Below are positions 1-30,300 of a DNA stretch of 64,000 nt, in pieces. The translations under genes were made by a program, and so were the position numbers. Position 1 is the first letter of the stretch; each line of letters starts with the position of its first letter. A model generated the notes under the pieces. That model had not been told where the DNA came from. It worked only from the letters and a program-made list of their open reading frames with translations, and ran no database searches. Source of the stretch: Candidatus Omnitrophota bacterium (GTDB taxonomy: Bacteria; Omnitrophota; Gorgyraeia; Gygaellales; Profunditerraquicolaceae); the NCBI GenBank assembly GCA_028717245.1, contig JAQUOD010000002.1, positions 76,772 through 140,771 on the forward strand. Reading direction: 5' to 3'.

Positions 1-330
1 ATTAAGGTTGTGGGGCAACCATCAACTGAAACAAGCCAGCCAGCAGAAACTACCACTTCGCCTGCGGATACAGGAACGAAAGAGCAGCAGCCAGCCCAAG
101 CTCCAGTGCCAGTCGAGCCAGAAACCCCAACCTCAGCTCCGACCGCGGTTCCTGCGTCAACGCCAACAGCCGAAGAACCTGCGCCTACTCTTGCTCCGGC
201 CGCAACAGAGCAGCCCGGCGAGCAAGAAGAGGCTGAGGTTAAGGTTGAGGGCGAAAAAGCTCCGGCCGCGGCTCCCGTTGAAGCGAAGCAAGCAGAGGAA
301 AAAGCAGCCGAAGCGCAAGCTGAAAAGGAT
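1..330 (+). other. Low-complexity Pro/Thr/Ala/Glu-rich linker ([16 protein letters not shown]...[16 protein letters not shown])
   Basis: Direct translation of frame +1. Confidence 0.6.
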
Positions 331-6300: not shown

Positions 6301-9300
6301 CTTATTGCCGGGTATAAAAAGTCTTTCGCGCCCGTTCCCGGATTGAATATGCCTCCGGCGCAGGAAACGGGAGAAAATGCTCTCGCTCAGCTTTTTTTAA
6401 ATCGCTTATATACGGCTGCTAAGGAGAAATCAGGGGTAAGGGCCATGGCGATGGTGGATACTTACTTGAAACTCTATCTTTATGATTCCGTGCCTGTTGT
6501 GGCTTTACCCGGCTCTTTTACGTTAGAGCTGTTTAAAGGAAAAGCAACGCAGGAACAGTTAGAGCAGATTAAGGCCGTGAAAGAAATATTATCCATACCC
6601 GAAATTAGCGCGTTGACCGGGCACGATAAAAATAAGGAGAACGAATTCCTGACTAAATATGTTTATGCACATTTTGCGTCTCTTAAAATTGGAAAAAAGC
6701 AAAGCATCCTTTCCATATTGCCTTTTATCGGTGCCACTCTTCAAGGGGCAGTAATTCAAGGAACAGCTTATTCGTCCAACATCCTTAGCAGTCCTATTTT
6801 CTGGGGGTTAGTGGTTGCGGTTGGTTTGACAGGTGCATTGGTTTATATGGTTAGGAATTGGGGGAAAGTTAAAGATGTTCTAATCCGCAGCCCGCCTGCC
6901 TTAAAGAAGGCAGTTTCTGTCTTTGCGGCGGCATTAATATTTATTGCCATTCCTGCGCTTACTTTTACCTGCACGCCGCAGTCCGCTACACCGCCTATTA
7001 TTCCTCCAGCACAAGAACAACCCGTAATTCCCCTCACAGAGGAACCCGTAAACATAAAGATTGCCCCTGGAGATGTTGTTGCCGAAGAGCTAATCAAGAC
7101 AACCATAGCTAACCTTTCTTCTTTACCCACTCGTTATATTGGCACTCCTGAGAATATAGGAACCGCAATATTTATAAAAGACCTGCTAAAAACATATGGC
7201 TATAAAGATGCAAAGAACACTAATAACGAACCTTATTATTTGTACAAAGAGTTAGAAAGCGGCATACCCTTATATGTTGCGGCAGTTATTCCAGGAAAAG
7301 TTAACGGCGCGAAAAATATTATCCTCTCAGCCCATTTTGATGCTTTTTATGCCGGCGCAGATGATAATGCTTCGGGCGTTGCGGCGCTGTTAGAGATATC
7401 AAGGTTATTAACAAATACGCATCCTGATAGCGCTATTTATGTTGTATTTACAAATGCTGAAGAGTTTGACGGCTTGGGAGTAAATTCCTTTATTAAAGAT
7501 ATGGTTGAAGAGGAGCGCGTAGAACCAGCGAATAGTATAGTGTTGGATGTTGATTCCATTGGCCAATCGCACCTTAGTATTGAGGATAATAATGGAGAAA
7601 ACAGAGAACCCCGGATTTGGATAACTTCAGTAGATGCTCCGAACCAGATAGAGCCAGTATCCTTATATTACGATACTTCATTGCCGTATAAATTATATGT
7701 AGACTCCAATAAAATGCAGCCACTCTCCGGCGAAAGTAATGCGTGCGTGTTTGCTTATTATGGATTTCCTGCAGTAACTATTTCTGGCATATCGCGTTCA
7801 CAAGCCCAAGAAGTTAAAATCTTTCATACAACCAAAGACGCTTATGGCCGGGTATCCACCGAAGCAGTTAATAGTATTACATCCTGGTTATTAGAAGTTG
7901 TATCCAAGAGGTCAGGTTTATCCGAAGAAATAAAATCCGCAGAAAGTGTGCTTATTTATTCCGATTTGAAAGTTGAAACTTCTGATTATACGGATAATTT
8001 AAGTATTTCATGCAATAAATCGGGTTTTGACTTTATGAATTTGGGTGATTTTGTGGTATCAGAGAGAGGTTACTCTATGGTTTCCGAGTGGACAGAGTTT
8101 TTAAAGAAGAGGTTCCCAACGTATGGTGAATATTTAAAAGGGATTAAATATGGTTATATAAGAGGCCAGTGGGGGGTATCTGGTAATACAGTTGCACACG
8201 CAGATACAAACGGAGGTATAATCGAGGTCGGATTTCCTTTGGAACCTTACCCGATGCGTAATGGTTTATTTGTTTCTTCTCCGTATGGAGGGCATTATTT
8301 CTCTCCTGAAGTTGTAATAACGCATGAATTGGGGCATCTAATTTTGGAGAAAAAGTTTGGCATAGACAAAGGCCAACCGGCATCTGTGGGTGTAAGCAGC
8401 AAAATAGAAGACTTAGGTTATAGCATTCCTTATGTAAATCAATTAGACGAGCTCATAGTTACAGATCTTGCATATAAGTTGTTATACGGAAGAATACCAA
8501 CCGAAGGATATTTTACCGGAAAAATATTCGAATCAAAGGATTACGGCTCTAAGATTAATTGGGAAAGTGTAAAAATAGATTTAAGTTCTACTGAAGAAGC
8601 AAGAGAAGCATTTCTTAAATACTTATTTAATGAAATAGGAGTTGATCAAGATACAGATTTGTTAAAAGAACCTGATTTATCTATTTCAAGATACATTCCA
8701 TTTTTACCCGTTGGAACCGTTATCTCTGGCGGGATTATAGTAAAACCCGAAGATGTAAAAGACGCAGGACCATTCTTCCCGAATTCATTATTACCTACTG
8801 TTATCCCGCAGATGTTATTGCCGGTTGCAGGCGCAATTAACCAGAGAAATAAGAGACTTGTTCAGAAAGGCAAAGTTACTATATTACGTTCAATCATTGT
8901 TGTTTTAGTGGGCCTGGGTGTGGGGCTTGGTGCGTGGTTATCGGCAGCTTTCTTTGGCCCTTCAGCTCCTGTTAACGCCGCCGAGCTTCAAGCGGCAGTA
9001 ACTCCGGCGGAAGCTTCTTCGTCCAACATCCTTAGCAGTCCTATTTTTTGGATAGGAGCAGGGATAGCTGGATTAATGGCTGCGTATCGCTTGGGCATAC
9101 TTAAGAAGGCCTGGCAGGTTGTCCACAGGGCTCTCAGCCCGCCTGCTTTGAAGAAAGCTTTCCTCGGCTTCATAGCATTAGTGCTCATTTCTATTTCTGT
9201 ATCTATCTCATCCTGCAGCTGTAAACCAGAATCAACTCCAACGCCGCCTGCCGCTATAGAAAAATCGGCTCCACCAATTTCAACATCTATTGCGCCAGCG

Positions 9301-12300
9301 CCAACCGCACAGGCGCCTATCTCCCAGAAAGATATTTTAGCTATTACCAATTGGCTGAAAGCAAACGTCAGCACTACCACCGGCTTACCTTTCAGCTTCC
9401 AGATACCCGAAGATAAGAAGAAAGAAGTCTATAGCCGTATGGGAGAAGCTAATTCTGTAAAGGGGATTATTGAACGAATGATTGTAAATGAAGGCTTGGA
9501 AGTATATGACGGCGCTTGCTGGGGGATACTTCTTACAGCGAGCGGCGACAATAAGAACTTAGAGTTAGCCTTTATACCTATTAATACTTATTGGAACGGC
9601 TCCTTAGGCCAGTTGCAGACCATTAGGGCGGGTTTTGCAGGAAAGAATACAGACCAACCATTTATCTATGATATAAATAGCCCTACTTCCGTATCCGCTT
9701 CTTTGGCGGATAAAGGAAAACGCGGCTTTATCTTCAGGATTATTGATGCCAATGGAAAATATAATACTGCTGACCCGTTAGATGGGAAGACTTATCTCCA
9801 AGGGTTCCCTACCTGGCCTACTATCCACTGGGAAGATTGGAAACCTATTGCCGGCGAGAACGCTTGGATAAGTATGCAGGCAGCGCAGTATCATAACGTT
9901 AAGCATGACGCCGTTTCATTACAATTAGCAGAAGAATTAGCCAGGACAGCCATATTACTGCAGGCAGAGAACGGCGGTATTCGGATGGCTCCCATTGGCA
10001 CTTGGCATGAGCAAGGTTCCGAATTTTATTATTATGAAATCTCTACGGAAAATAACCACTCTTGGTATAGTGCCTTCAGGATGCTTTATCAGATAACCGG
10101 TAAGGATATTTACAAAAAAGCAATGGAAGGAATTGAACGCTACTTTAAATCTGTTTGGGATCCGGAAACCAATACCTTCTATCAGGGCGCGCATTACACT
10201 AATGGCCGGTGGGTTCTTAATAAGAGTGACTTTGCGGAGGATTGTCAGAGCTGGGGAATTGATGTCTTAGGGCCGCAGAAGATAGATTCCTGGTTTGGCG
10301 AAGGCGCCTCTTATAAGATGTGGAAGAAGACCAAAGAATTATCCGGATATTATCAGGGGAATAAATTATTGGGCGTGGGGTACACCGCTGAACATGATCA
10401 GCTTTCAGTAGAATGGACAAACGGTGGGATTTTTGCTACCAGAGAGTTAGCTACTTATTATCAAAATACCCATCCAGATTGGGCAAAAGAATGCGCTGCT
10501 GATGCCCAGAGCATGAGAGATGGAGTTGAGACTCTGAAACAGGAATCAAATGGCAAAACCGGTTACTCTTATTCTTTAAAGAGAGAATATATACCGTTTG
10601 GATGGTATTCACACGAACCGTCAGTTTTAAGCACTACATCTACTGCCTGGGTGGGATTTGTAGATTTAGGTTATAATCCTTTCTATTTAGGCGGAAAGTC
10701 AGGAGTAGTTCCTGCTACGGCACAATTACCGGCAGCTACTGCGAAAGCGACGCTGACTCCGACACCGACTCCAACTTCTGCTCCAATAACTCCCCAGCAG
10801 CAAGTGAAAAAGGCATTAGAGGTAGATTTAGGAAACTTACAATATTATTCCGGCACAGGCTGGGCTTCTTGCGCTGTGGACGTGGTCAATATTGACGCTT
10901 CAGGATACGATACGCTTAGAATTAAGGCATCAGGCAAGGCAGGGGATAAGTTTATTGTGCAGTTGCTTGATTCCTCTATGCACGATGATAGTTCAAGCGG
11001 GATAAGTTCAACAAAGGCCCTTTCCGGTAGCTCTCAAGAAGTAAATATACCTCTTTCAGAATTCCGCGGCGTAAATCTAAAGAGCGTGCGCCGGATTGCT
11101 ATCCATTATGGCCGAAGCGCCTGGGGCAGTGCTCTTAACCCGCAGGGAGCAGATATCGGATTAAACGGCATTACCTTTATTTCAACACGGACAGCCGGAC
11201 TTCTGCCGGTTGCGCCAACCACAGCTTCATTACCTTCTGTTCCTTTAGCCACTATTCCGTTAAATATGCTTCTAGCGTTGGCAGTTGGGCTTATCCAAAT
11301 AAAGAAAAGAAACAGCAAAATAAAAGGTTCTAATGTCGGACTCCTAAAGAAATCCGCAAAAGAATCTTTACAAGGTAAATCTAACTTTATAGGCGATTTA
11401 GCTATTAAGGCATATTTAACGAAGGGTTGCCTGTCAGGATTAAACAGGAGAGCGGCGATAGGAATACCTGTCGCGCTTATGCTCGCAGTAATCCCCGCCA
11501 TAATGCAAAACATCGAAGTTCGGGCGCAATCCGGGACATTACAGATAACCCCGCCAAGTAATCCACAATACGCTTCAGGCACGAATTGGGCCGCTCGTTG
11601 GGTAGATGTAGGAAATATCAATGTTTCAGAATACAGCGTTTTAAGGCTTAATCTATCAGGCAATGTTGGAAATAACTTTATTGCACAGTTATTAAATACC
11701 TCTATTACCGATGATAATAGTTCAGTTGGCAAAAGCCCGGTATATACTCTGACTGTTGCTTCTCAAGACATAGATATACCTCTTTCGGCATTCGCTGGCG
11801 CTAATTTGAGTAGTATTCGCAGGATTACTGTCCATTTCGGCGCGACCGCTTGGGGGAACTACCTTAATCCTCAAAACACAAATATAATAGTAAACAGGAT
11901 TGCCTTTGTTGACACTATTGCGCCTGCTATCTCCATAGTTGCTTCTTCAAACATCACCAGCTCTTCAGCGGTGATTACCTGGACTACCAATGAGCCAGCA
12001 GATTCGCAGGTAGAATACGGCACCGGCACAAGCTACGGCTCAACTACCAGCTTAGATGCTGCTTTAGTCACCAGCCATTCAGTTACTCTCACAGGCCTTG
12101 CACCCGGCACTACCTATCACTACTGCGTAAAGAGTAAAGATGCCGCAGGAAATCTCGCTCCCGGAACGGACAATACCTTTGTTACTCCTGCAGCTCCGAC
12201 TCCCACTCCGACGCCTACGCCTACACCGACGCCTACGCCGACACCTACACCAACTCCAACTCCAACTCCAACTCCGACTCCGACACCGACACCAACGCCG

Positions 12301-15300
12301 ACACCAACACCAACGCCTACACCCACTCCGACGCCTTCTAAAATAAAGGGAGTTACCTTATCCACGGTACCCAAAGGGAAAACCGATAAAGACTTAATTC
12401 TCGATTTAGCCTCTGTGGGCGAAGCCAATATTAAATTAATGTCTCAAGCAGGAATAAATACAGTAAGGACCTATTATCCTCCTTCCGGAGACTTATTAGA
12501 TGCCTTTGCCAGATATAATATAAAAGTAATTATAGGATTCCCGAAGGATGATTTGAGAAATATTCTTGAACAGTATAAGGCGGATATTAAAGGAGGCAAA
12601 TACAAAGATTACATAAATCAGTATAAGAATCATCCTGCGGTCTTGATATGGGAGCTGGGTAATGAATATAACCTGCATCCGGAGTGGTTCGGCGGGGATT
12701 TAAACAATTGGTGGTCAATGCTGAAAGACGCAACCACTGTAATCCATAGCATTGATCCTAATCATCGGGTATCCACTACTTTAGGATACGCGAATTTATC
12801 CAGCGATATCCCGCAAGTAGTGGCTGCGGGCGTTGATGTGATTGGCTTAAATTACTATGCAGGGGGGGATAATTATTCAGCTGCGGTTACGGAACTAAGG
12901 GCGCTTACAAATAAACCCATCTATTTTTCCGAAGGCGGGACAGACTCTTACAATAACAGTATAAATAAGGAGAGTCAAGCTGAGCAGGCCCAGGCAGTGG
13001 TAAATATTTGGAATTCAATTAAAGATGCGGATGTTTTGGGGATTACCTTTATGACTTGGCAGGATGAATGGTGGAAATCCGGAAATCCTGCTGCCCAGGA
13101 TATGGGTGGATGGCCTACTCTTGCTGCCTATGATAATTTTATAAACGATGAATGGCTGGGCTGGAAAACTATAGACAAAATACGTAAATTGGTTTTAAAT
13201 GAAATTGCTAAGCTGTGGACAGGGGCGCCTCTGCCAGCAGCGCCTGTTGTTTCACCAATTGTCCTTTCTGGTATCACCACTGGCTCAGCTGTAATTACCT
13301 GGGAAACCGATGGGCCAGCGGATGCGCAGGTAGAATATGGCATCGACACAAGCTATGGTTCAGCCACTACCTTAGATGTTGCTTTAGCCATCAATCACTC
13401 AGTTACTCTCGCAGGCCTTGCCTCCGGCACTACCTATCACTACCGCGTAAAGAGTAAAGATGCCGCAGGAAACTTGTTTACCAGCAATGACTATGTCTTT
13501 AGCACTCTTGCGCCACCTGCTCCGCCTTCAGGCGGCGGCGGTGGTGGTGGAGGCGTAGCACCGATAAACGCAAACAAGCCTCCGGTAATAAAAGATATAC
13601 CGCCACTCAACTTAACTCTCGGCCATAGAAGGCTTCCTATAAACTTAAAGGATTATGTTTCTGATGATACGACCCCCGATTCTGATTTAATCTATAATTT
13701 TAACCCCGCTGATTTAGACCCCGATGTCAACGCTACTTTAACCGGCCCTATCTTAACTATCAGCGCTCCGCCGACTTGGGAAGGGCCGACTTCGCTGGAT
13801 ATCACGGTAACGGATACAGGAAAGGCCTCTGCCTCATATACATTGACGATAAAAGGTAAAGCTAATAAGGCACCGGGAGTAATAAAACCTATACCGCAAT
13901 TAAATTTCTTTACCGATAGGAGAAAAGACAGCAGAGACTTAAAAGATTATTTCTTTGACGAGACTATTGTGTCTCCTTTGACTTACCGCCTTGATAAATC
14001 TTCGTTAAACCCCGATGTCAACGCTACCTTAACCGGTTCTATCCTGACTATCAGCGCCCTACCGAAGTGGGGAGGCACAACTTACCTTAATATTACGGCA
14101 TCAGATACAGAATTAGATACTACATATAAGTTAACGATAACCGGCGAGGCTAATAACCCGCCGGTAATAAGAACAATGCCGCCAATCGCCGTCTTCGCTG
14201 TCGGCAATAAATGGCCCGGCATAAACTTAGAGCAATATGTTTCTGATAAAAACACTGCAGCGTCCAAATTAAGCTACGAAATCATTAATCCCCAAAGGAT
14301 AGACTCCCGCTTGAACGCAACTATTGATGGCAGCCATATTTTACATATTTCTACCTCGGCCAATTGGAAAGGCACAAGCAGCGTTACGCTTAGAATAGGC
14401 GACGGGGAATTGTCAACTGACTGTACTTTAAATGTTTCTGTTAACACCGAAATCCCGGCTCCCACGCCTACGCCTAATCCGATACTTCAGCCTGTTGTTG
14501 ATTTATGGCAGAATACCTGGGTTAAAGTAACTGTGGCAGTAGTAGGGGTAGCCGTTGTATTTAGTATTATCCTTGCTTTCTTAATGAGGATAAGGAAACA
14601 GGGTGGAAATGTTACTGCTTTAGGTTCAATGATTGCCGGCTTAAGTTTCATTGCTGCTGGAGTTCTGGCAGGCTTATTTATTCCTGTCGTCGGTCTCATT
14701 GTGGGCGGGCTACTGGGCGCCGCAGGAGCCTTCTTCATCGCCCAGGCAATGGCAATTGTTTATGCCTTTGTAAAGCAAGGCGGAATCAGGGGCCAGCCGC
14801 GGTATAAGTATCTTACTACTCCTATTGCCCAGCCTACTTATCGCCATCTCGCCTTCAAATATTTGCCAATAATATTCAGAATCTCCATTAACCGCCACGA
14901 ACGGACCCACTTTAAACACAAAAGTGAGATAAGGGCTTACCTTAACCAGGCCTTATATCTAATACCAGATGCTATTAAATCTACGAAAGAATCCATAAAG
15001 GAATCCGCAAAAGAAGCCTTGAAAGGTAAGCCTACCTTTATAGGTAACTTAGCTCTTAGGATTGCATTAACCGAAGATTATTTACCGCGGTTCAGCAGGA
15101 GAGAGGTAATTGCCATACCAGTTGTAGCTGTAATAATTGCTGGCGCAGCAATTCCAGCTATAGTTCAGACTGTTGAAGCGAAGGAAGAATCCGAAGTAGT
15201 TGTTTTTGTTTTGGATAGCGGAGAATATTTTGATTGGCAAGATGCGGTAACGGTTATACTTAAGGATGAGTCTAAGAATATACCGGTTGAAGATACCATG

Positions 15301-18300
15301 AATAAAGTTCATGGTAGCATTGTAACGAAAATTATTAAAGATGCTTGCAGTGGTGCGAAGATAATTTACAAAAATGTTGGCGTAATTAGACCTTCTATAT
15401 ATATGCCGAATGAGAAAAAGTTTATTATCCCCGGTTTTACAGTATCTGTTGTGAAATATCTAACGGAATTAATAGACATTTTAGACTATGTCAAAGTTCA
15501 TCCGCAGGAAAAAATATTAGTTAATATGAGTTTCGGTAATTATGAATACGATCCTTTAGAGTACGCAGTCATAGAAACTCTCGCAGAAAAGGGAGTGATA
15601 TTTGTAGCGGCAGCAGGTAACGATGATACTGACGAGCCTATGTATCCTGCTGCATATGAAGAGGTGATTAGTGTTGCTGCCGCAGGCGATAAATCTAAAG
15701 CGGAATATTCAAATTACGGAGAGACTGTGGATATAATGGCAAGAGGTAAATTTGAGGCAGAAATATTACCCGGGATGGGAATTACATTTGGATTTGCAGG
15801 AACTTCTATGGCAGCTCCTCGAGTGACTGGTTTATTAGCCAGTATGCTTATGGAGAATCCTGAGATTTCTGCTCAAGAGGCAAAGGGGATAATTTTAAAA
15901 ACAGCAGATCCTATGAGTGATCCGCTCTATAAAAAAGGCATGTTAGGAGCGGGGATAATAGATAGCGATGAAGCATTATATGAAACTTCAGAAATAGTAT
16001 TTTTTAGACGGTATCCATCCGGTGTAATTAAGAGTTGGGTAGCACAAGGGAACAGCATATATTCTGTATTCTTATCGCCTGATGGAACAAAATTAGCCCT
16101 GGTTTACAAGGATAAAAATATAGAAATCATTGATTTTGCTAGTGGAAATGTTAAGGTTACCAATGAACGTGCCGATTACGCAAGTCCCATCGCCTTTTTA
16201 CCTCAAGGAGAAACGTTATTCTTTATTAGTAATAAATCTGTAAAGATTATGGATCTCGCTACGGAAGAAGTTAGAACTATGGATGTGCCTAGAGGATATA
16301 TAAGCGATATCGCCTTCTCGCCCGATGGAAATAAACTTGCGTTGAGATTAGGAATAGAGGATAAAATCGATATTTTAGATCTTGCTACCGCAAAGTTGGA
16401 AACCATCGCTATTCCATCAAGCATTATTAGTATCGTATTTTCTCCTGACGGAGCTAATCTGGTAACAAGCTGTTATAATGGGAGTATATATGTTTATGAT
16501 TTAAATGCCGGAAAGGTTAAAGAACTGATAGGATATGAGGATACTTTTGATTTAGTATTTTCCATGGCCTTCTCGCGTGACGGAACTAAATTAGCCTTGG
16601 GTCATGGTACGGGTAATATAACTGTTTTAGACCTAAATGCAATAACGGCTAAAGTGCTAAAAGGGCATATAGATTCAATAAATACTATTGCTTTCTCCGC
16701 GGATGGGGCAAAATTAGTTTCAGGTAGCGTAGATAAAACTATAAGGATTTGGGATTTTAATAAAGAAGAAACCGAGACAATAAGAGATACTAATGAAATT
16801 CTTGCTGTTTTTTTATCGTCCGATGGTAATACGTTGATATCAGCGACCGGAAAAAACGTCAGAGCGTGGGATTATAAAAATATTAAAGCGTCAATAGATA
16901 AATTTAATTATTCTGAAAGACCATTCAGTTTTTTAGAGAGATCTTACATCCTTTCTTGGTGGGAGGGGCTAATATTTTCTGTTTCATCTTGGTGGGAGGG
17001 GCTATCTCTTGGGATACAGGTTTTAATAGTTTCTATCGGTCTCATAATACTTCTTGTAATAATAGATGAGTTAAATAATAGAAATTCTGAAAAAAACGTT
17101 TCTGCAAGAGGCTCTCTTATGGCAGGAATGGCTGCTTGGGTAGCCACAGGTATTATTTTAACTATACCTTTTATTTGGTCAATGATTCCTATGGTAGTAA
17201 TTCTTCCTGTTGTTTTATCGTTGTTTAGTTTCGGAGCTATATTCATCTACAAAGGGATAAGGATTTGGTTAACTAAGGCAGAGGCGAGCCGTGCGCCACC
17301 CACAAAAAAACAGCTTGAAGAATTAAAGAAAAGGATTGGAACTGGTTATAATCTAACGCTTCTTCCCCACGATGGTAGAACCGCCATCGCCTATGTTAAT
17401 AATAAGCGAGTACATATTGACCTATCTCGCTTCTATTATCTCTCCACTCTGATTCAAAAATCTATTCTTGCCCACGAGCAAGCCCATCTTAGAGGCCATG
17501 GCGAAATAATAGCATATTTTAACCAGGCCTTATATTTTATAACCAATATAATCAAAGATATTAAATGGTTACGTAAAGCCTACGACACGTTAAGTAAAAT
17601 AAGAATAAGAATACCTTGGCAAATACCCATCATTAGTAGCTTCATTACTTTGTTTGTATATGGCCTATTCGTATTTTGTAAAGGTGTCCTTGGCGTCATA
17701 CTCTATAACCTCGAGATATCTTTTATTAATGTTTACGCTAATTTATCTTATAGTACTGTTATCAGAGAGCTTACTCTTATTGATGTAGGGAGAGCCATTA
17801 AATCAATTGGATCTCTTCTCGCTCCCGTTACTGCAACCGTGAATTTCCTCTTTCCCTTTGCAATGGCAGGAATAGTAATACTTATGGTCGTTACATTCAT
17901 TGCAAAATGCCAGGATATTTATATCGGTTTACCTAAAGCCCATGTTTTCCATAAGGCACAAAAGCCATTGGTTAACCTCTATTTATCCTTAGAAGGGGAG
18001 AATTTAGAAAATAAGGTACAAGAAGAAATAAAAGATTTACGAGAACAGGTAGAAAATAAACAGATTTCATTAGGAGAGGTTTATTGGCGGGTAGCGAATA
18101 TATGCGAAGGAGCACTTAAAGAAAGAGACAGGGTAAAGAAGGACGCACAAAAAGAAGGAAAAGCTGGCGCAGCTTCTACGTTTGAAAACTGGAACGAGAC
18201 ACAAATAAAAGCTATAGAGCAAATCTGGCAGGATATTCAGGGGGCAGAGGAAGGCAATATTAGCAATATAAGTAAACTTGCCTATGAATTGATAATGTCC

Positions 18301-21300
18301 GGCGGCAAAACAGAATTAGCTTTCTTCATTTTAACATTATGGTATGTAGCAAAGAGTTATTTAGGCCTTGATAAAATAATTTATACCAGCTGCAACGAAA
18401 ATGCAGTAGAAGCTGATTTCGAGGCATTAAAAAAGGCATTTGAGATTATTAATATAAATGTTAACAAAAGATTAAAAGAGAAAGCAGATGAGCGGGATTT
18501 GAATGAATATGCCGCAGACGCCATTACCTTTGTCCCTTATCAGGTCTTCTCGATTGACTGGGAGAGGCATTCAATGGATACCAATCCAGTGATTAATACG
18601 GCAAAAACAGCGTTGCTGGGCTTAGAGTTTGATGCGCTCTTTGATGACCTATTTACTCCTCAGATTCTCTTAGGGGATCCCATCGGGCCGAGCGATATTT
18701 CAGACACTCAACATAAAGAAGTAATAAAAGAAGCAGTCTATTCTTATGCTGAGATACAAAGAATATATTCATTTGTCAAGGGAGAGCTTGAATGTGGAAG
18801 GGATTTTATAGTCAGGCAGTACGCTGATAAAGATGCAGAGGCGGAATCAGAAGGCGCGCGTTTTGAAACGCATTATATTGAGATTACAGAGGAAGGTTTA
18901 GACTTAATATTTAAAAAACTCGGGAATGATAACCGTTATGTAGCTTTGGTGAAAGGCTGTTTAGATGCAATGTACCTTTATCATCAAGGCATACATTATG
19001 TCACAAAGGCGGATGGCCTTCAATTAATACATACGCCTACAGGCCAGATTTTTGAAAATCGCCAATTACAGGACATCAATGTCTGGTTTGCGCTTTATGT
19101 AAAAGAAGGTTTATTCCAAGATAACCTTACGTCGGAGAATATGCGGATAGTCCTAAGTAGTTATTCCGAAACCAAGGATTATAGCAATCTTTTTTCTCTA
19201 TTGGATGCAATGGGTTTAGTCTGGGGCTTAAGCGGGACCTTGGAGCAGGCCCTTTTGGAGCAATTTGGCTATAGCGTAAAAATTATTGATGGCCAAGAAA
19301 TTGAAAAGGCAAGAAGAGGAGCGACCAAGGAAGAGCCCGCCCTGTTATATGCAGGAAAAAATTTCGCTATAGGAAAAGTAATTTTCGAGGCTAAAAAACG
19401 TGCCGACAAGAAAGAACGGGTAGTCATTTATGTGGAGGATGTAGAGAGTGCCGAAGAATTAGAGAAAAGATTTAGAGAACTTGGCATAATAGCGAATTGC
19501 TTAACTCAGGAAATGAGCCCGAAACAGATATCGGAGGTAGTAAAGAATGTCGCAGGTAGGAAGGAAGAGATTACTATTATTACTTCTTCTTCCAGCCGCA
19601 ATACCAACTTCAAATTAATTCTCGACGAGGATCACGGGGAATCAGAGGATTCCGAGTCGGCCATATTTAATTTCCTTATTCTCGGCGGAAGGGATGTCTG
19701 GCGCTGGCAGAGACAGCTTTTAGCGCGTATCCCGCGTTTGACAGGCTATAACGAAGGAATATACCATTTCGATCCTGCGCGAATTAAGAAATTCTATTAT
19801 TTAGAGCAAAGCCTATTCCAGAAATATCCTTCTGTGGCAGAGGAATTAAAGAAAACATTGCGAGGCAGAGAGAAATTAGAATTGGACTCTTTCTCTCATG
19901 AAGCAAGGTGCGCAGATAGCCTTATAGAAAGCATAATGGATATGGCAACTACGGATTATAACCAGCAGTTAGCAGAGCAGAGGATAGTGGAGAAGCCGCT
20001 TACTGTATTAAGGAATGAGTTTATTACAAGGCGGAATGAGCTTGATGACGATAGCCAGAAATTATTAGATGAGGCCTGGAGATTATTCTTAGCGAAAGTA
20101 GAAGATTTAAGGATTCTTCTGAGCGTGCCTTCAGCAAGCAAAGAAGCAACGATAGGCTATTGGGCGGTTCAACTACAAGAGGCGTTTGATAATACGGTAA
20201 TGAAGGCATATAGAGGAGAGGAATTAGAGAAAGAGAAACCCGTAGAAATCGTTGAGGATATATACGGGAGAGAAGTCGTGCCGGGTAGATTAGGGCGATG
20301 GTTAAAAGAATGTGTAATAGAAGCTTTGCGGGGAAGACCCAATCTTATAGGTAAATTAGTTGTTCGGTTATATATTTTATATAAAAATTTTGCAGCAGGT
20401 TTAAAACGTATGGTGCCCTCTTTGTCCTGGTCAACGGCAGGCACAACGGGAATAGCAGTAGTGATAGTGATTAGCGCCGTGGCTAGTACTGGCACACAAA
20501 ATGTTTATGCTCAGTCAAATAACAAAGTTAAAGTTGAAGGTTATCAATTATTAGTGGATGGCAAGCCGTATCAGATTAAAGGCATTACCTATAGCCCTGC
20601 CGGAAAAGGCACGCAGGGAGGCCAGTTCAGCCAATGGTATGAGAAGGATATCCCCTTGATGCAGGCAGCAGGGATAAATACTATCCGCACTTATGGAATT
20701 ATAACTGATAAAAATGTTTTAAAAGCATTTGCCGATGCAGGGATAAAAGTGATTGTAGGTTTTGATAATGCAAAAGATATAGCGACAGGCAACTATAAGG
20801 GTTATATAACCGAACACAAGGATGACCCGGCAATCCTAATGTGGGAATTCGGCAATGAATATAATTATCATCCGGAATGGTTTAGCGGAAATATTGATAC
20901 TTGGTATAACGCCTTAGAGCAGGCTGCCCAGGCCGCCCATAAATTAGACCCTAATCATCCGGTTTCAACTGCTCACGGAGAGGTGCCCGGTAAAGATATA
21001 GTACAAAAGGTTCCTTCGGTTGATGTCTGGGGAATGAATATCTATCGAGGCCAGTCTATCCAATCCGCGCTCTCCCAGTGGGCAAGCCTCTGCGATGAGC
21101 TCGGGATCACCAAGCCAATGTATGTTTCGGAGACAGGCACGGATTCTTTTAATAACTCTAAAGATGCGATAGATGAAGAGGCGCAGGCAGAGGCAACAGA
21201 GAATCTTTGGAGCCAGATAGACGGCTCAAGTAGTATCCATAATTCTAAGAATCCTTCTTTAGGAGTTACTTTTATGGAATGGAATGACGAATGGTGGAAG

Positions 21301-24300
21301 TCAGGAAGCCCTTCAACACAAGATAAAGGTGGTTTTGCGTTTAGCGTAGCCAGTGATAGCTTTGGTAATGAGGAATACTGGGGTTTTGTTGATATAGATA
21401 GAAAACCCAGATTGGTTTTAACTGAAATGGGTAATCTTTGGAAAGTGAAAGAAGCGGTTACGCCTGAACCTCAAGTTTCTCCTACGCCTGCAAGAGCGCC
21501 GCCTGTTACGCCAACACCTACGCCTACGGTTACATCTACACCGTCTCCAACCATAACCGCCGAGACACCAAGCCCGACACCCACTACCGCAGTAATTCCG
21601 GAAAAGACGACAGGGATCAAAGAAGAAATCAGTACGTGGGATAAGATATTAGATACTTTTAGAGAGATATTTAGTTGGGGTAACGCCGTTACTCAAACCT
21701 ATAACGGCGCTGAATTTGCTCCGGCTCCTACGTCGACACCTACGCCAACCATCAAACCCACACCTACGCCGACGCCTAAGCCTACCTTGACTGTGGGAGA
21801 AGTAATCGGCCAGAAAGACGTAAAGGGATTACAGTATCCTGTAACGCTGGAGACCGTAATTGCTATAGAAAAAGCGAAGCAGGTTTACATAGCCAGGCAA
21901 AAGGCGCTGGATGATCCCAACATCTGGGCTTATATTGAAAAAGATAACGATAACAATGATTACCCGGATGAACTGATTATCTTGAATAAGGCAGCTTATA
22001 ATGAGCTTTTGGAAAATAAGAAATTAAATCAAGAGGCGATAACTACCAAAGAAGGCGGCCTCCCCATCTATTATAAGATAACCTTAAAAGATACTGGCGA
22101 AGAGGTTCATTTTACGCCGGTAGGCGCAGAAGAAGAATTCACTCAAGCCGCTTCAGCCTTAGAAATCACTAAGGCAGCCAATGAGTCCTGGTTGAATTTT
22201 GATACCTACCCGGCATATATCACACAAGATACTAACGGCGACAGGCGGCCGGATATCGCGATTAAGCTTACCAAGAAAGACCTGCAATACCTTATTAATA
22301 ACGGGCTCCTCTTTTCAGAGCCGATAAATGATGCCCAAGGGAAGCTCTTATATTATAAGGTAACCTTAAGATATAATGCGACCTTGCCGGCAGGAGATGC
22401 CCTGAAAGCCGGTAGTGAGGTGCACTCCACCACGGATAAGGCGTTGATGGAGTTTCTTTCCGATGACCTGAAGGAGAGTCAAACAAGCATCCAGAATTTC
22501 CTGAATACTTTGGCTGGTGACAGGGCCGCAATCATAAATTTCCTGAATACTTTAGCTAACGATAAGGCCTTAATGCAAAACTTCCTAAATGCCTTAGCTA
22601 ACGACAAGGTCTTAATGCAGAATTTCCTGAATACTTTAGCTAACGATAAGGCAATAATGGAGGCCTTTGCAGCTACCTTAGCCAACGACAAAGTAGCTAT
22701 AATGTCATTTATAGACGCCGCCAATAACGGAGTTACTGATACCCAAAGGCTTCTCCAAGATGCAAGAGCAGGCGTAGGGGCAGCTCAAGCTAAAATTACT
22801 GACGCCCAAACAGAAATGGCCAAGTATGCTGACACTACTAACCCTGAAAACTACTCTATGTATCAATACTGGAATATGGTTACTTATATAAGGACAGCAG
22901 GAGGGGCAATCATACGTGCCGGTAATAATGTCAGTATTGTGGATATCAATGGCTCGGTAATATACGCTAATCCATTTGACTATAGAATGTATGTATCTGA
23001 AGGGACAAGCTATGAGCCGGGCTTAAACGGAGCGAATTGTTACGTAACCCTGATGCAGAAAGGCGGCTATATAGAAAGAGTTTCACAATATCAGATAGCT
23101 TATCATGAAGTTTCAGGCGGCGCGGTTAATTTGATTGGTTATGGAGGGTTTTCCGGAGGCACGCTTAATGTAGGCGAGAGCGTGGCTATGACCGGCGTGG
23201 ATGTTGCTAAAGCTTTCTTGAATTATATGACTAAGGGCGGGAATATGAAAGTTATGAATGACAAAGTTGTTGCCCTGAATATATTCGGTATGGGCACAGT
23301 TTATGCGCCGGCAGGGCTTAAAGTTGTTGCTTATCCTGATAACACAGCCGGGTTAGAGGGAATTAATAATATGATAGATGCTATGAATAACGATTATTCA
23401 TTTGAGGTCCAGGGCGATTTAGTAAAGTGGACAGTGCTGAATGTGGTTTCGGGCAAGGTAAGCACTTTTTCTGTTCCCGTATCCGCTACTATTGATGCCG
23501 CCCATACATTCCCCAAGACCGGCGGCTTAGGCGCGGTAAATAATATTATTACTGCTATGAATAATAATTATAGCTTTGTGGTGGGCGCTGACAATGTCAA
23601 ATGGGTGTCAGTAGATCCGGCTACGGGCAAGGTTTCCATCTTCTATACCGCAAAGACAGCAGCTGATGCGAGTCACCAGTTTCCCTCCAGCGGCGGCTTA
23701 GGCGCGATTGATAATATAGCTGTTGCCTTGCAGAATAGCTACGGTATGCATATAGTTGGCGACAGCGTCAGATGGGTAGTGGTGGACGTAAACACAGGTA
23801 ATATTATTGCTACTTTCTACACCGTCAATGTCCCTGCTGCTAATGTTGACGCAGCGCATCAGTATCCGTCTTCCGGCGGCTTGGCGGCACTTGACAAGCT
23901 ACCCATTGCCTTACAGAATAGCTACGCTATGGATATATCGGGCGACGTAGTCAGATGGAGAGTCGTGGATGTAGGTTCTGGAAATCTGGTTGCATCCTTC
24001 TATACAGCCGCGACTTCTGTTGTAAGCTCAAATCCATTACCGTCTTCCGGCGGCTTGGCGGCAATTGACAGGATACCATCTGCCTTACAAGGCAGTTATA
24101 CTATTACGCCGCTTGGCGGGGACAGCGTCAGATGGACATTATGGGATATGAAAACAGGATATGCCAATAGCTTTTTCTTTACGGCCTCAATCTATAGCGG
24201 TGACTCTGCGCATCAATTCCCGCGAAGCGGCGGCTTGGCTGTTATTAATAACCTGCTTTACGCCTTAGAAAATACTTATGTGCGGGAAGATTTAGTTGAT

Positions 24301-27300
24301 GCTTCCGATAGTTTTAAATCTAAATCCAAGTGGACAGTAGTATACAGCCCGACCGGGCAAGTGGATGAATTCTACACCCCGATGAGCAGCACAGAGACCG
24401 AGCCCAAACATCAGATACCGGCTTTTGGCGGTTTAGGCAGGGCAAGCACGGTAATTGACATTTCCCGCAGCACCTATACCAAAGAGGAGCTGCCTGATCC
24501 TGCTCAAGTGGCATCGCGTGATAAAACCAAATGGACAGTGAAGGATAAGGCAACCGGCGATGTCTCCTCTGTTTTTTATACGGTAAAAATAAACGAGGAG
24601 AGCCTGCTGATAAGAGAAGCCCATTTCATCGGGTGGGGTTACGAAATAAAAGACGGCATAGTTACAAAAATCTTCCAGACTGCCAGCGATATACCTAAAG
24701 ATATTAACCGGCTTGCTGACGGGACTAACATTGATAATGAGAATGAAAATGTCATAGAATACGGGCTTAAAGCAGCGCAATTCAACTACGATAGGGCTGA
24801 GAAAATGAGGGACAATAGTTTAGAGGCAAGAGAGGCGCTGCGCACCTGGGGATACTGGACTGTTAAAGATCCCGCCGCAGATATAAAGGATTTGGAGGAC
24901 CTTATCGTCCTCACTCCTGAAGAGATCCTGGAAGAGATAGAGAACCACAAGGCAAAGCTAACCATAAGCGGGCCGGATGAGAAGAGAAGGTATACGGCTA
25001 ATTATACAGTTGAAGGCAAAGAAGAAAAAGTTTTAATCTTTACCCCCGGCCTCAAAGGCACAGAGCAATATATTGCTGCTTTAGAAGGCAAAGATAATAT
25101 ATTCGGCGGCTATATGGAAGTGGGGATGGACGGACAGAAAACCTGGGTTTATAGCCTACAAGCCAGCCGCGAAAATCATGCTACCTCTAATCCGGTTGAA
25201 ACAACCTTTGATGAGGCCAAGATAACAGGAATCTTTAATAAGGTAGGCGTTCCGGCTGCGCAATACTTAGACCAGTTAAAATACAGCTCTACTAAAGAAA
25301 TTGCGTATTACATTCCATTCAATAACCCCGAGGATAGCTTTGTCCCTCAAGGCAAACCCGAGACTAATACCTATTTTGGCGGGTTATTGATAATGCAGGT
25401 CAGGGACGGCGTAGTAACCTATAATATCTACGACGGCACATTTGACCAATACGGACTGCCGCACATAAGCATCGGTTACGCCGTTGATACGGGAAAAATA
25501 AAGACTAAAACCATTATTACGGGCGTTGATGTTGAGAATAAAACTGTCAGCAAAGATGTTATTTATTATAACTCTGCCGAGCAGGAAGGCCGGACCGAAC
25601 AGCAAACCTTTGATGTTAAAGGCAGGATTCTAAACCAGCTTTATGGAGAAAACGGAGTTCGATACGGCTATGCGGGCACAGCCGGTGAATACGGCCAGCC
25701 GAGCACAATTACTACTTATCGAATTTTTAATGGAGGAGAAATCCCTATCCCTATTCAGGAAGGCGGACTTGTTGGCGCAGACGGACAGATTAATACAAAC
25801 GGCACAACCCTTGCTGATTTAAAAGCCCTTATCACATCCGGTGAGCTTGCAAAGAGGGGGTTCGTCTTTACGGATGAACAGAAGAAATACTTCCTTGAGG
25901 CTACCGGCTCCGAGCTCTTCTGGATTTATCAGTTTAATGCCGCAACCACCAGCAAAGATTTCTTGAGGCTTGAGATTTTTGACGGTTCTGCTTCTGTGCC
26001 CGTGGCCATACTGAGCGATGTAGAAACATCCGTCAGGAAGATAGAAAAAATTAACGGCGAAGACACGATAATAACCCATTGGAACTGGGATCTGGCGCAT
26101 AACGTAAGCTTTAAGGGCGAAGGAAGAGGCTCTTCTGTTTCCGAGCTTGAAAGTTTAGGCCTTACGCCTCCTCAAATAGAGCGTTTTAATGAAACATACG
26201 GCTTAAGTAATATATGGGTAGATACTATCACGAGTATGGATATAAAAACAAACCCCGTCATCAAATACGACATCTATGATTATGCGCATTCTAACCCCAT
26301 TGTGGTTATTTATAGGGAATATGCTGTTTCCGGCTCAGTTATTTCTAACGCCTACGTTATTTTCAATATTTATAATCCGGAATCCCAGGTCATTAGGGAG
26401 TCCACTTATTACGATATTAAGACAAACAAGAAATTATTATCCGATGTGCTTGGCGAAGAAATTACCCCTGATAAATTAACTAAAATTCTAGAGGATAACA
26501 AAGTGGATTTATCAGAGGCAAGAGAGGATAATTTTGCCGATAAACTTGGCAAGCCGGGAGAGCTTAGTAATCTCATCACTTATTTAGACAAGCTACCCTT
26601 ACGTGTTTACAATAGGACCGTATACCAAAATGATAATGAATTTACGACCATACTCGTATATGACGGCATCCAAAAAGAGCCGCGCCTATTTATCGGGTCC
26701 GATAATGTAGAAATCACCTATCCTAAAGGAGTATACCAAGTCCCCGCCAGCGCTGTCGGGCTGGATATAGCGCGGTATTTCTCGGGAAACTATACAGTTC
26801 ATTCTGACATGCCGTATGTAACCTTGGATAAGGGAAAACTTTTCATGGGAAGTAAGCCTTTTGAGATTAGGGCTATTACCTTATCTGCTGTTCCGGTGGG
26901 CGGAGAACGCGTGAATTTCGTATTCGATCTTTATCGCGATGAAGATAGGGTAGCTGTTGAGGCCTGGAAAAACGATAATGCGGATAAGCTGACAGAAGCT
27001 AATATAGGTAAATTTTATACCGAAGCATCCAATATAAAAGGGAAATATTATGCTACTATTCCCGCTAACTACAACGGGCTAAACAACAGGGAGATATTTG
27101 CGATAATCAGTAAAGATAAAAATACAAACGCTATTTCCGTTGAATATAATAACGGGACAATAAAAGAAGTTTGGATTGCAGGGCTTAAAGGTAAAGGGAT
27201 AAATACAGTAAGGACTTATGTCGTGGCTAGTGAAGACTTATTGGCCGCTTTTAGAAAGTATGGTATCAGTGTAATTCAGGGGATACCTTATTTTGACGAC

Positions 27301-30300
27301 AGGCAGCCCGGCACTCCGATTTTTGACGCCAATGGAAAACTTTTGAACCCTATCGCCGGCCCGGATATCAAGACCGGAACTTACATACCATATATTGAGG
27401 CCCATAAAGACAACCCGAACACACCAGAAAAAGAATACCCGGAGATTATAGGAGATGAATATGGCAATGAATATAATTACCATCCCGAATATTTTGCCGC
27501 AGATGCTGAGGAGGCCTCAAAAGCGTCCGGCGTAAAAATAAAGCCGCTTGATTTTTATTATCAAGCATTAGAGAAAGCAGCCCAAATAACCCACCAAAAA
27601 GACCCTAATCGCCTGGTTTTCTCAACCTACGGGTATGACGGAGTCCCTTCCACTAAAGATGATTTTGGCTTGGTAACCAGGCAAGTTCCGTCAGTAAATA
27701 TCTGGGGCTTGAACGTTTATCACTGGGATAATCCTTCAGGGGCCGTAGAAGAAGCAATAGCGGCTTCTGGTAAACCCATATATATCTCTGAAACAGGCGC
27801 TGATTCCTGGAATCAATACACAGGCAAGGAAGATTTGGCAGCGCAAGCCAGGGCAGTAGAAAATATATGGAAATCTTTATTGGATGATTTGGATGATGAG
27901 GATAACTTGAAGAAGAATGTCTTAGGCGCAGCATTTATGACTGCTTTTGATGAATTCTGGAAAGGTGGCGCCCCTGACAGGCAGACCACAGCAGGCGCTG
28001 TTTTTGATGTTTACCCCGATACATTTGGTAATGAGGCGCACTTTGGATGGTGGAGGGCTGACGGCACGCCTAAACAAGAAGTAATCGATGCTGTTACGAG
28101 GATGTGGGCAAATAGATCCAAAGGGTATGTTCCTACCGTAGCTATAGATGCTAATAGCCAACGCGCCCCTCCGGAGGAGATTTCACCCGAATATCTTAAG
28201 CCGCAAGATAACGAAACTCCAACCTTAAGCCCATCCGCAGTATTAACTTATTATAAAAACCCTCAGCCATTACCCGCGTTCCAGCCATCATTAGGCGTTA
28301 TTACATATATGTTAGGCGAGAGCCCTGATTGGGAGAATATCCAAATCTTTGACCCTCTGACCGATACGCTTACTTCATTTCCGCTCGCCGGGCTTAAACT
28401 CACAAAGTTTGGCACTTACACTCAAGATGGGCAGTTAGTTAACTTTACTTATCGCGAACCCCTCGATGCCTTTGGCAGGGTTAGGATTAGCGCTTCGCTT
28501 GACCTCAAGGACGTATACCTGATTACCAAATTCCAGGATGTGAATGTATATCAGCCGGAAGAAGCAAGGCTTCTTCAGCTGCTGGATAAAGAGGGCGTAA
28601 AACTTCTTAATCTGCCGGATGAAAAGGAAAAAGAGCTCCTCCAATTATTAGATGAAAATAAGCAAGTATATATAATAGCAAAGAGAATGGATTCTAAGGA
28701 ATCAGCCAAAGTAACTGATATATATAATTTCAGCGATGCGCAAAAAGCAGATATCAAAGGCGTAATAGCGCAGATAAAGAATAAGCCCGTAGAATCTTTA
28801 ACTGAAAATGACTTAACTCTGGTTAAGACAGAATCCAATATTGACGGTGAGATTTTCTATGAATACGCTGTCCCCGGAGATACGCTGGGAGGTTCAGTTA
28901 TTATTGACCGCGCCAACACCATATTTATCACTAAGCAATTTATCAGCTTAACCAGGATTCCTTACGAAGGGTATTTTATTGATAAAGCACCCGGCGGCGA
29001 GCCCATCTTAGAGCTTAAGAATACGGATGATAAGGATGTAGAACACGGCTTGGGTATGGATGATGAACAGCGCTTCTACAGGGTAAGATACACTAACCTG
29101 AAGACAGGCAAGGTTTGGTATCGTTGGCAGTATCCTTCTCATATTTGGGGCGGCTATGCCTATGAAGAAACAGGCCGTTTTGTGGAATTAGAGCAGGCAT
29201 ATTCTTACGTAGATAATTTAGGCCAGACAGTCGATGTAACCCAGAGATGGGTTCCCGAAACCCGCACCTGGGTAGATGAGTGGTCTACTATTAAGGATGA
29301 ACCTGCCAAGACAAGATTTGTCTATGTAGTAAATGGCCGCGAGCTGCCCGCGGATAATATCCAGACCGATGGCGTAAAACTTATGAAAGATATAATTACT
29401 CGCGATATGGAAGATGCCTACAGGAAGGAATCTAATAATAGAGATTTATGGGAAGATATGAAGTTGAGTGCAATAGGAGAAATAGACCAGGCCCAGCGAG
29501 ATGCTCTGGGAGATTGGGAAAAGGATAATTCTAATGTCTTTACTTCCGTAAACCTTGGCAAAATCTATAATATTCCGGATAATTATAAGAATCGCGGCAA
29601 TAAAGCCTTCCAGATAATCATTGGAATTACACCCGATACAAAGCTTACGCAGGTAAAGAAGACCCCAATTTTATGGCAGGGGAGCACAGATACGGAAATC
29701 CAAGCCACAGAAAAAACCGGCCCAGTTTCTTACTTCTACACCTTACCCAGCGACCCGTTAGGCAGGGGATTATTGATAGTTGTTCCTACTGGTGAGAATA
29801 CTTCAAAGATTATCCTTAATATGTGGTGGGTTAAGAATTCTGCGCCTTTAACTGTCTTGTCAAAGAGTATAACCTTAAAGCCGGGAGGCATAGAAATAGC
29901 AACTTTTGAAAGCAAGGTAATCCTGAATGGAAACGAAGTTTATAAATATTCCATCAAAAATGGCAATTATAAACTTGCCGAATATTATATTCCTACACGC
30001 ATGGACGTACCTTATGCTGAAGAATGGCAAATCAAGCACGGTCCCCTGGATTTTTTATTGGGTATACCCGATACCAAAATTATTTATTTTGATACAAAAG
30101 TTCCTTATCCCTCGCCTGTTTACTCAAAGGCAGACAATAGAGTAGAAGATATAGAAAAACTGCAGAAGATTATTTTCCTTGAAGATGGGTCACAAATACA
30201 GGTTTTTGATTCCGAAAATCTCTGGCCAAGTTGGGTAGTCGGAGACAATAAATGGGAAGAAAAAATAATTGTATACGATAAATACGGAAGAACAGGGACC

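Follow-up and report, generated by a model that had tools for sequence, protein, structure and literature searches.

A highly divergent SecA-like module within a giant multi-pass membrane protein of Candidatus Omnitrophota

The 64,000-nt stretch analyzed here (the window; positions 76,772 to 140,771 of contig JAQUOD010000002.1, Candidatus Omnitrophota) encodes a module that, judged by sequence, is a SecA paralogue of high divergence, built into a giant multi-pass membrane protein. Frame +1 runs through 21,333 codons with 0 stops, while each of the other five frames has 761-1,972 stops, so that the window in its entirety is an internal piece of a single giant open reading frame (ORF; 1..64000, + strand) which is open at both window ends. 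The module covers approximately residues 6061-6738 of this ORF. Amino acid (aa) numbers refer to the ORF throughout, and query positions in the module searches equal the ORF residue minus 6050.

When an 850-aa piece carrying the module was searched against the PDB with phmmer, SecA and SecA2 were the only significant matches. The SecA2 of Mycobacterium tuberculosis (4uaq) matched at E=2.2e-7, with query positions 320-741 aligned to chain residues 249-653, and Escherichia coli SecA (5k9t) at E=4.7e-7. Against 1.84 billion representative proteins, phmmer gave 35 matches at E<=1e-3, with the best SecA at E=2.3e-8. Seven of the nine matches checked with Pfam are full canonical SecA proteins (SecA_DEAD, PP_bind, P-loop_SecA and SecA_SW), and the remaining two, P0001 and P0008, have no Pfam match and are relatives of the module itself. 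Six NCBIfam families match the module, all of them SecA or SecA2, and the best reaches E=8e-13 and 47 bits against an equivalog cut-off of 814.

Profile comparison gave the strongest statistics. A family profile was built from four members, namely the window module, P0001, L001 (JBDREX010000022.1) and P0008 (UCD15434.1), the last two being from Omnitrophota metagenome-assembled genomes (MAGs). Aligned by hhalign to 28 canonical SecA proteins, it had a probability of 99.7% and E=6.9e-26 over 553 columns, spanning query 41-655 and SecA 97-785 of 831, and E=1.4e-42 in global mode. A hidden Markov model (HMM) of the same 28 proteins scored 97.2 bits at one place in the whole ORF (aa 6102-6540) and found no second SecA-like module elsewhere in the 21,333 residues. 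The Pfam models P-loop_SecA (E=1e-4, 22.5 bits, gathering score 27) and SecA_PP_bind (E=8e-4, 20.4 bits, gathering score 23.5) both stayed under their gathering scores, and SecA_DEAD had no match to the module at E<=10. Of the 75 columns with a conservation of 90% or more in 30 canonical SecA proteins, 33 are retained in the module.

The fold comparison points in the same direction. In a Foldseek search of the PDB with an AlphaFold2 (AF2) model of the module, the first 36 matches were all SecA or SecA2 (E 2e-23 to 2e-7), and the best TM-scores, 0.56-0.57, were to SecY-bound SecA (6itc, 5eul, 3dl8). The model (pLDDT 73.5, pTM 0.73) was built from an alignment of 38 sequences without L001, and because these are mostly canonical SecA, it is no independent proof of the fold. 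Prediction from the module sequence alone was unusable (pLDDT 35). A SecA-like motor inside the giant ORF had been proposed in the initial annotation, made by reading the sequence without database searches, and both the profile and the fold searches bear this out. Each peptide quoted there occurs once and where it was placed, with MSGGKTE starting at nt 18295. Its extent of 18200-19800 was close at the start (nt ~18181) and too short at the end, as the module reaches ~20214 and includes a probable scaffold helix and two-helix finger. The parts of the module, in which NBD denotes the nucleotide-binding domains, PPXD the SecA-specific preprotein cross-linking domain and HSD the helical scaffold domain, are as follows.

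18181..20214, + strand: the whole SecA-like module (aa 6061-6738), from sequence and fold comparison
18271..18675, + strand: N-terminal part of NBD1 with motifs I-II, aligned to SecA NBD1
18289..18315, + strand: Walker A (motif I), LIMSGGKTE (aa 6097-6105) opposite SecA EMKTGEGKT; G6102, K6103 and T6104 kept
18544..18570, + strand: motif Ib, VFSIDWERH opposite SecA GFDYLRDN
18622..18633, + strand: Walker B (motif II), LEFD (aa 6208-6211) opposite SecA DEVD; E6209 and D6211 kept, first Asp replaced by Leu
18676..19215, + strand: PPXD inserted in NBD1, from the sub-threshold SecA_PP_bind match and hhalign
19216..19830, + strand: NBD2 (RecA-like domain 2, IRA2), from the sub-threshold P-loop_SecA match
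19219..19242, + strand: motif III, VWGLSGTL opposite SecA LAGMTGTA, recognizable by hhalign and phmmer
19570..19611, + strand: motif V, opposite SecA VTIATNMAGRGTDI; Arg finger R6533 kept, Gly to Asn and Asp to Asn
19684..19737, + strand: motif VI, opposite SecA ERHESRRIDNQLRGRSGR; R6568, Q6572, R6576 and R6579 kept
19897..20034, + strand: long HSD helix including YNQQLAEQR (SecA YDxxxxxQR), from AF2, phmmer and hhalign
20047..20214, + strand: two-helix-finger or IRA1-like hairpin (LLDEAW...DLR ... EAFDNTVMK), from hhalign and AF2 helices at query 633-658 and 664-688

The residues around the nucleotide site are largely those of SecA. The Gly, Lys and Thr of Walker A occupy positions with 93-100% conservation in SecA, and MS[GA]GKT is common to the window module, L001 and P0008. 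The initial annotation had matched this block to SecA position for position; GKT is indeed kept, but the register was off by two residues and the module has a 5-aa insertion ahead of motif Ia, which is itself recognizable. The Gln in FENWNETQ is conserved in three members, and hhalign does not pair it with the Gln of the SecA Q motif. In NBD2, the GRGTD of SecA motif V reads SRNTN, in which the Arg is retained as had been noted. The motif VI arginines were also described correctly: together with Q6572 they lie in columns at least 90% conserved in SecA, and the motif is identical in L001 and largely retained in P0001. The MAFFT alignment is a few residues out of register at motif III and at the scaffold helix, where hhalign and phmmer were used instead.

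Walker B lacks the first Asp of the SecA motif. VFSIDWERH had been taken as a degenerate Walker B, but phmmer, MAFFT and hhalign all align this segment to FGFDYLRDN, i.e., motif Ib, and the actual Walker B is the LEFD further on. The description as degenerate is thus half right, for a different reason than was given, in that the first Asp is lost and the Glu and the second Asp are kept. This first Asp is 100% conserved in the 30 canonical SecA proteins and is Leu in the window module, Met in L001 (MEFD) and Asn in P0008 (NEGD); the Glu and the second Asp are present in all three. An ungapped hand alignment, with G-L opposite D-E, was rejected. The LEFD/DEVD register was chosen because MAFFT and hhalign agree on it, E-x-D is kept in three members, and the beta-strand of the AF2 model terminates at L6208. 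In E. coli SecA, the D209N substitution described by Mitchell and Oliver in 1993 reportedly leaves a protein that binds ATP without translocation ATPase. In Walker B, the first Asp is located at the Mg2+ site (PMC7503281). Whether the module hydrolyzes ATP at a normal rate is thus uncertain from its sequence. Loss of this Asp, being shared, looks like a trait derived in the family and not like decay in a single lineage.

The remaining SecA domains can be followed through most of the module. Between motifs II and III lies an insertion of ~180 aa, the PPXD, which is the best-aligned stretch in the phmmer and profile searches against the PDB. Its conserved loop ends in ...ALYVKEG, opposite SecA TGRxxxGRRxSDGLHQAxEAKEG. 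The phmmer alignment to SecA2 continues past NBD2 into the scaffold helix, opposite TWRYNQLIAQQR (SecA2 YNQLIAQQR). In the AF2 model this is a helix of 46 residues (aa 6633-6678, query 583-628), followed directly by a helical hairpin at aa 6683-6738 with no extra helices in between. The hairpin is placed opposite the finger of SecA (LDxxWxxHLxxxxxLR...F...F) with low to moderate hhalign posteriors, and the scaffold and finger stretch searched alone scored -1 to -2 bits, which is not significant in hmmsearch. The finger loop reads SVPSASKEA where SecA has LRAYAQKDP, so that the finger-tip Tyr is Ser. Between scaffold helix and finger, hhalign opens a gap of ~105 residues at the wing domain, which contacts SecY in solved complexes (PMC7503281), and Pfam found no SEC-C or other C-terminal tail in the module. 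As judged from these alignments, the module has lost the wing and the C-terminal tail, and its architecture is closest to mycobacterial SecA2. The scaffold helix and the two-helix finger can be made out with low to moderate confidence; of scaffold and wing, the wing alone is demonstrably absent. Neither the apparently retained scaffold and finger nor the deleted wing had been recognized in the initial annotation.

Conservation among the relatives is concentrated on the nucleotide site. The following statements are drawn from three to four sequences (the window module with L001, P0001 and P0008). The module is the only detectable part which the window ORF shares with the 4,515-aa ORF of L001, at 43% identity over aa 6020-6738 (E=4e-158). 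NBD1 (52%) and NBD2 (56%) are its best conserved parts, and identity is 41% in the two-helix finger, 38% in the PPXD and 33% in the scaffold helix. At only 22% identity to the window module, P0008 has still retained MSGGKT, the motif V Arg and the E-x-D of Walker B. All three members that span them have the same Walker A Gly, Lys and Thr, Walker B Glu and Asp, and motif V Arg, and the R/Q/R/R of motif VI is common to the window module, L001 and P0001. That these residues persist at 22% identity points to continued selection on the nucleotide site.

The search for further members did not enlarge this set, and the family is very sparsely sampled. A word-indexed protein search with the module alone had no match, and with the four-member profile it returned only three canonical SecA proteins. 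Scans of metagenome contigs with a two-sequence alignment and with a degenerate DNA pattern for motif VI revealed no further family members. P0008 (UCD15434.1, annotated as 'partial') is without reliable genomic context, since CP070797.1 (L002), a 1.5-Mb 'contig' from an Omnitrophota MAG, appears to be made of concatenated contigs, with many short-fragment genes and exact 100-nt spacers. Among the canonical SecA matches, the 1,087-aa P0004 has an insertion of ~250 aa directly after the GEGK of its Walker A loop. It ends in ...VVTHN before TLTAAA and looks like an intein in the P-loop.

The position of the module relative to the membrane was predicted from hydropathy and charge. As the initial annotation had pointed out, it lies between a cluster of transmembrane (TM) helices and a signal-peptide-like segment.

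17008..17901, + strand: upstream TM cluster, with helices at aa 5670-5688, 5707-5725, 5731-5749, 5875-5893 and 5949-5967
20401..20511, + strand: signal-peptide-like or N-in signal-anchor segment (aa 6801-6839), read from the sequence by heuristic
20527..21150, + strand: TIM-barrel glycoside hydrolase (GH) of clan GH-A, Pfam Glyco_hydro_2_C with 29.6 bits against a gathering score of 21

The five upstream helices score 1.85-3.05 (Kyte-Doolittle, 19-aa windows) and are likely the membrane tether of the module. A Lys/His-rich stretch follows TM 5949-5967, and the C-side of this helix is therefore predicted to be cytoplasmic. The signal-like segment lies ~75 residues past the finger and has, by heuristic, the layout of a Sec signal peptide or N-in signal anchor, with K6802 and R6803 in the n-region, a 16-residue h-region (aa 6813-6828), and a c-region VYA|QS with a small-x-small site. 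The first domain after it is the GH-A barrel, which also matches an NCBIfam beta-glucuronidase (E=3.5e-6). The next TM-like segment, with basic residues behind it, is not reached until aa 10128, leaving ~3,300 residues without a predicted TM segment (20494-30381, aa 6832-10127), in which Pfam found no domain at E<=0.01 beyond the initial barrel. According to the positive-inside rule, the basic residues after TM 5949-5967 and before the segment at 6813-6828 put the module inside and the GH domain outside. The module is accordingly predicted to be cytoplasmic and the following ~3,290 residues extracytoplasmic.

The relatives also have hydrophobic segments near their modules. In the window and in P0001, a hydrophobic segment lies 70-84 aa past the FDNTVMK motif, and the sequence of P0001, about as far from the finger, is KPAR and VAFLGSMAVVMIGSIGCQAAMA|AS. 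In L001, the strongest hydrophobic segment is found at +39; a KK-rich loop comes next, and then a further hydrophobic segment that ends in VQA|YG. In P0008, TM helices precede the module by ~100 aa.

Just upstream of the window module, the ~125-aa loop between TM 5731-5749 and TM 5875-5893 (aa 5750-5874), which is probably cytoplasmic, contains an HExxH motif (17473-17487, aa 5825-5829). The loop has no Pfam or NCBIfam match and a weak, non-significant similarity to MJ1213 (PDB 4qhf, E=0.37), the minimal metallopeptidase 'selecase', which is a model for M48/M56 membrane proteases.

The module carries the parts which in SecA make up the ATPase (NBD1/NBD2), the polypeptide clamp (PPXD against NBD2) and, with low to moderate confidence, the SecY-facing scaffold and finger. 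The most likely reading, to which we give about even chances, is a membrane-tethered, cis-acting export motor or clamp for its own downstream chain. The five preceding TM helices would hold it at the cytoplasmic face. As the next part of the chain emerged, first the signal-anchor-like segment and then the ~3,300 TM-free residues beginning with the glycoside hydrolase, the tethered module would capture it in the PPXD/NBD2 clamp. It might then dock on SecYEG and move this part of the chain through the inner membrane, in the manner of SecA acting in trans, or perhaps act mainly as a nucleotide-gated clamp alongside housekeeping SecA and the proton-motive force. Capture in cis is plausible because the C-terminal tail of SecA itself lies in the clamp as a beta-strand in crystal structures (PMC9926265), and in the present case the remainder of the giant chain would take the place of this 'tail'. 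Such a built-in export or threading aid, as the initial annotation had suggested, fits the predicted topology and the domain content.

Several observations weigh against a SecA-derived export module. None of the Pfam SecA models attains its gathering score, SecA_DEAD does not match, the NCBIfam score is likewise far from what canonical SecA requires, and the AF2 fold leans on an alignment dominated by canonical SecA. An otherwise invariant Walker B Asp is lost, GRGTD has become SRNTN, the conserved Arg of the PPXD TGR is Gln, the finger-tip Tyr is Ser, and the wing is absent. Just three relatives were found, the topology and the signal-like segment are based solely on hydropathy and charge heuristics, and there is a single module although the ORF has many putative membrane crossings. 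That the module is a generic superfamily 2 (SF2) helicase or nucleic-acid motor, or that its resemblance to SecA is due to chance or composition, we consider extremely improbable. All significant sequence matches are SecA or SecA2, the alignment takes in parts found only in SecA (PPXD insertion, scaffold helix and IRA1), both fold searches place SecA ahead of every helicase, and profile-profile E-values down to 1e-26 and 1e-42 exclude chance. Membership in the DEAD/DEAH-type SF2 helicases was rejected given the SecA-specific insertions and the SecA best matches, and the helicase or chance explanation is refuted as far as sequence and fold statistics can do so.

The losses listed above could also mean that the module is a pseudo-ATPase, i.e., a clamp, chaperone or docking piece derived from SecA that does not hydrolyze ATP. 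It might keep the chain unfolded or recruit SecYEG, with the energy supplied by housekeeping SecA, the ribosome or the proton-motive force. The Walker B change in all three members, the altered Gly and Asp of motif V, the missing TGR Arg and finger-tip Tyr, and the loss of more than half of the strongly conserved SecA columns (33/75 kept) are in line with this, as are the very long branches and the rapid evolution reported for such domains (West-Roberts et al., 2023). However, the Walker A residues, the catalytic Glu, the second Asp, and the arginines of motifs V and VI are constant at 22-44% identity, which would be difficult to account for if nucleotide binding, and probably hydrolysis, were not under selection, and the NBDs are the most conserved part of the module. 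We therefore regard a pseudo-ATPase as possible but rather unlikely. A further explanation is that the module works in trans, as a membrane-tethered, SecA2-like accessory motor for separately encoded substrates, for instance partners of neighboring type II/IV secretion-like genes. Its closest relative in structure and sequence is the accessory SecA2, SecA2 proteins export specific sets of substrates (PMC7503281), and accessory proteins were named as an alternative by West-Roberts et al. (2023). Yet no candidate substrate is visible in the window, which consists of the giant ORF alone, the signal-like segment that three members have directly behind the module is most simply taken for a substrate in cis, and the fusion itself argues for a cis role, so that a motor acting in trans appears quite improbable. 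Within the cis-acting export reading, a bolder version is an active, covalently tethered 'self-threading' SecA that inserts the internal signal sequence just behind it (ending in VYA|QS) into SecYEG and moves the following ~3,300 residues out of the cell's interior. Signal peptidase might afterwards cleave at VYA|QS, the ORF would act as a polyprotein processed at the membrane, and the deviant Walker B would be tuned in this family for slow, processive, co-translational work. We hold this version to be speculative and on balance unlikely.

SecA-like domains in giant Omnitrophota proteins have been described before. Divergent SecA domains were reported in most giant genes of this phylum and proposed to serve self-export, with adjacent TM helices as possible anchors and alongside an ordinary SecA/SecYEG of the same genome (West-Roberts et al., 2023, bioRxiv 10.1101/2023.11.21.568195). 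A 2026 preprint lists a PF07517 SecA_DEAD architecture cluster among long Omnitrophota proteins and discarded internal signal-peptide calls as artefacts (bioRxiv 10.64898/2026.06.07.730766). The window module fits the description of these domains, as it shares with them the phylum, a giant multi-TM ORF, an enzyme mix with an S8 domain near the module, the divergent motor with a preprotein-binding domain, the adjacent TM helices and the missing wing. It differs in being too divergent for SecA_DEAD at E<=10 and in having a detectable scaffold helix and two-helix finger, whereas the published domains were said to 'lack the scaffold and wing' (West-Roberts et al., 2023). The full texts of both preprints make no mention of Walker motifs, the loss of the Walker B Asp, or a signal-like segment following the module.

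Compared with housekeeping SecA (E. coli, B. subtilis; 5k9t, 6itc, 3din), the module has the same order NBD1-PPXD-NBD1-NBD2, continued by HSD and two-helix finger with low to moderate confidence, and keeps motifs I, Ia, Ib, III, V (Arg) and VI. In contrast, it is without wing, C-terminal linker and zinc finger, its Walker B is LEFD, and covalent TM tethering replaces the N-terminal lipid-binding helix. SecA is a free-standing protein of ~800-1,000 aa, while the module is embedded in an ORF of at least 21,333 aa. Mycobacterial SecA2 (4uaq) likewise has a reduced or absent wing and no C-terminal tail (PMC7503281), and is a specialized paralogue beside a housekeeping SecA. However, it is a free soluble protein of ~780 aa with a canonical Walker B; the window module is ~17% identical to it, fused in a membrane protein of >21,000 aa, and has Leu for the Walker B Asp. 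There are also systems that resemble the proposed function by analogy. The accessory Sec system (SecA2/SecY2) is a dedicated export route for very large serine-rich glycoproteins, and autotransporters carry their export device in cis. In both, as may be the case here, export machinery is dedicated to a substrate that is exceptionally large or difficult to handle. The cis device of autotransporters is an outer-membrane barrel and not an ATPase, and the likeness is therefore one of analogy without homology.

The giant ORF contains a mix of enzymes of the 'Archaeovorin-type' which West-Roberts et al. (2023) found in giant Candidatus Omnitrophota genes. The domains identified by Pfam on the + strand are the following.

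aa 1765-1923, + strand: GGDEF domain
In the giant ORF, + strand: S-adenosylmethionine (SAM) methyltransferase, M28 peptidase, purple-acid-phosphatase-N/fn3 and GH2-like barrels
aa ~5163-5305, + strand: S8 subtilase
aa ~5350-5630, + strand: WD40 propeller
In the giant ORF, + strand: nucleotidyl transferases (NTP-transferase), starch-synthase-like glycosyltransferase domains (GT5/GT1) and phosphoglucomutase (PGM)
In the giant ORF, + strand: GH77 4-alpha-glucanotransferase (E=1e-114)

Kyte-Doolittle hydropathy shows ~37 TM-like hydrophobic segments scattered through the ORF. Dense multi-TM blocks are found at ~31414-32120 (aa 10472-10706, ~6 hydrophobic segments) and ~33577-34670 (aa 11193-11557, at least 10). 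Pfam had no match of any kind at E<=5 in the two multi-TM blocks searched (aa ~10100-10750 and ~11150-11600), and a built-in SecY- or YidC-like channel was not detected there. Two near-identical cassettes at ~6886-6990 (aa 2296-2330) and ~9133-9240 (aa 3045-3080) read SPPALKK, ~19 hydrophobic residues, (T/S)C and a Pro/Thr-rich linker, and resemble internal lipoprotein-type signal sequences with a lipobox-like ...ISSC or ...LTFTC. Only one complete ORF of 150 aa or more was listed for the window. It has 208 aa and a TTG start, lies at 11106-11732 on the minus strand, antisense to the giant ORF, and is most likely spurious.

As both the SecA-like domains and their proposed role in self-export are already published, the functional interpretation in the initial annotation re-derives an existing hypothesis, and the gain from the present analysis is incremental. 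What it adds is the state of the active site at motif level, with Leu-Glu-x-Asp in Walker B and most nucleotide-site residues kept, the apparent retention of scaffold helix and finger together with a SecA2-like loss of the wing, and a signal-anchor-like segment directly after the module that precedes an extracytoplasmic-type enzyme in the window ORF. It also shows the module as the only block that two giant ORFs, unrelated in all other parts, have in common. Cleavage by signal peptidase at VYA|QS, if it occurs, would make the giant ORF a kind of polyprotein. It is not understood how cells synthesize, insert and export polypeptides that are tens of thousands of residues long, and a translocation motor fused into its own substrate, if this is what the module is, would be the most concrete clue to this question.

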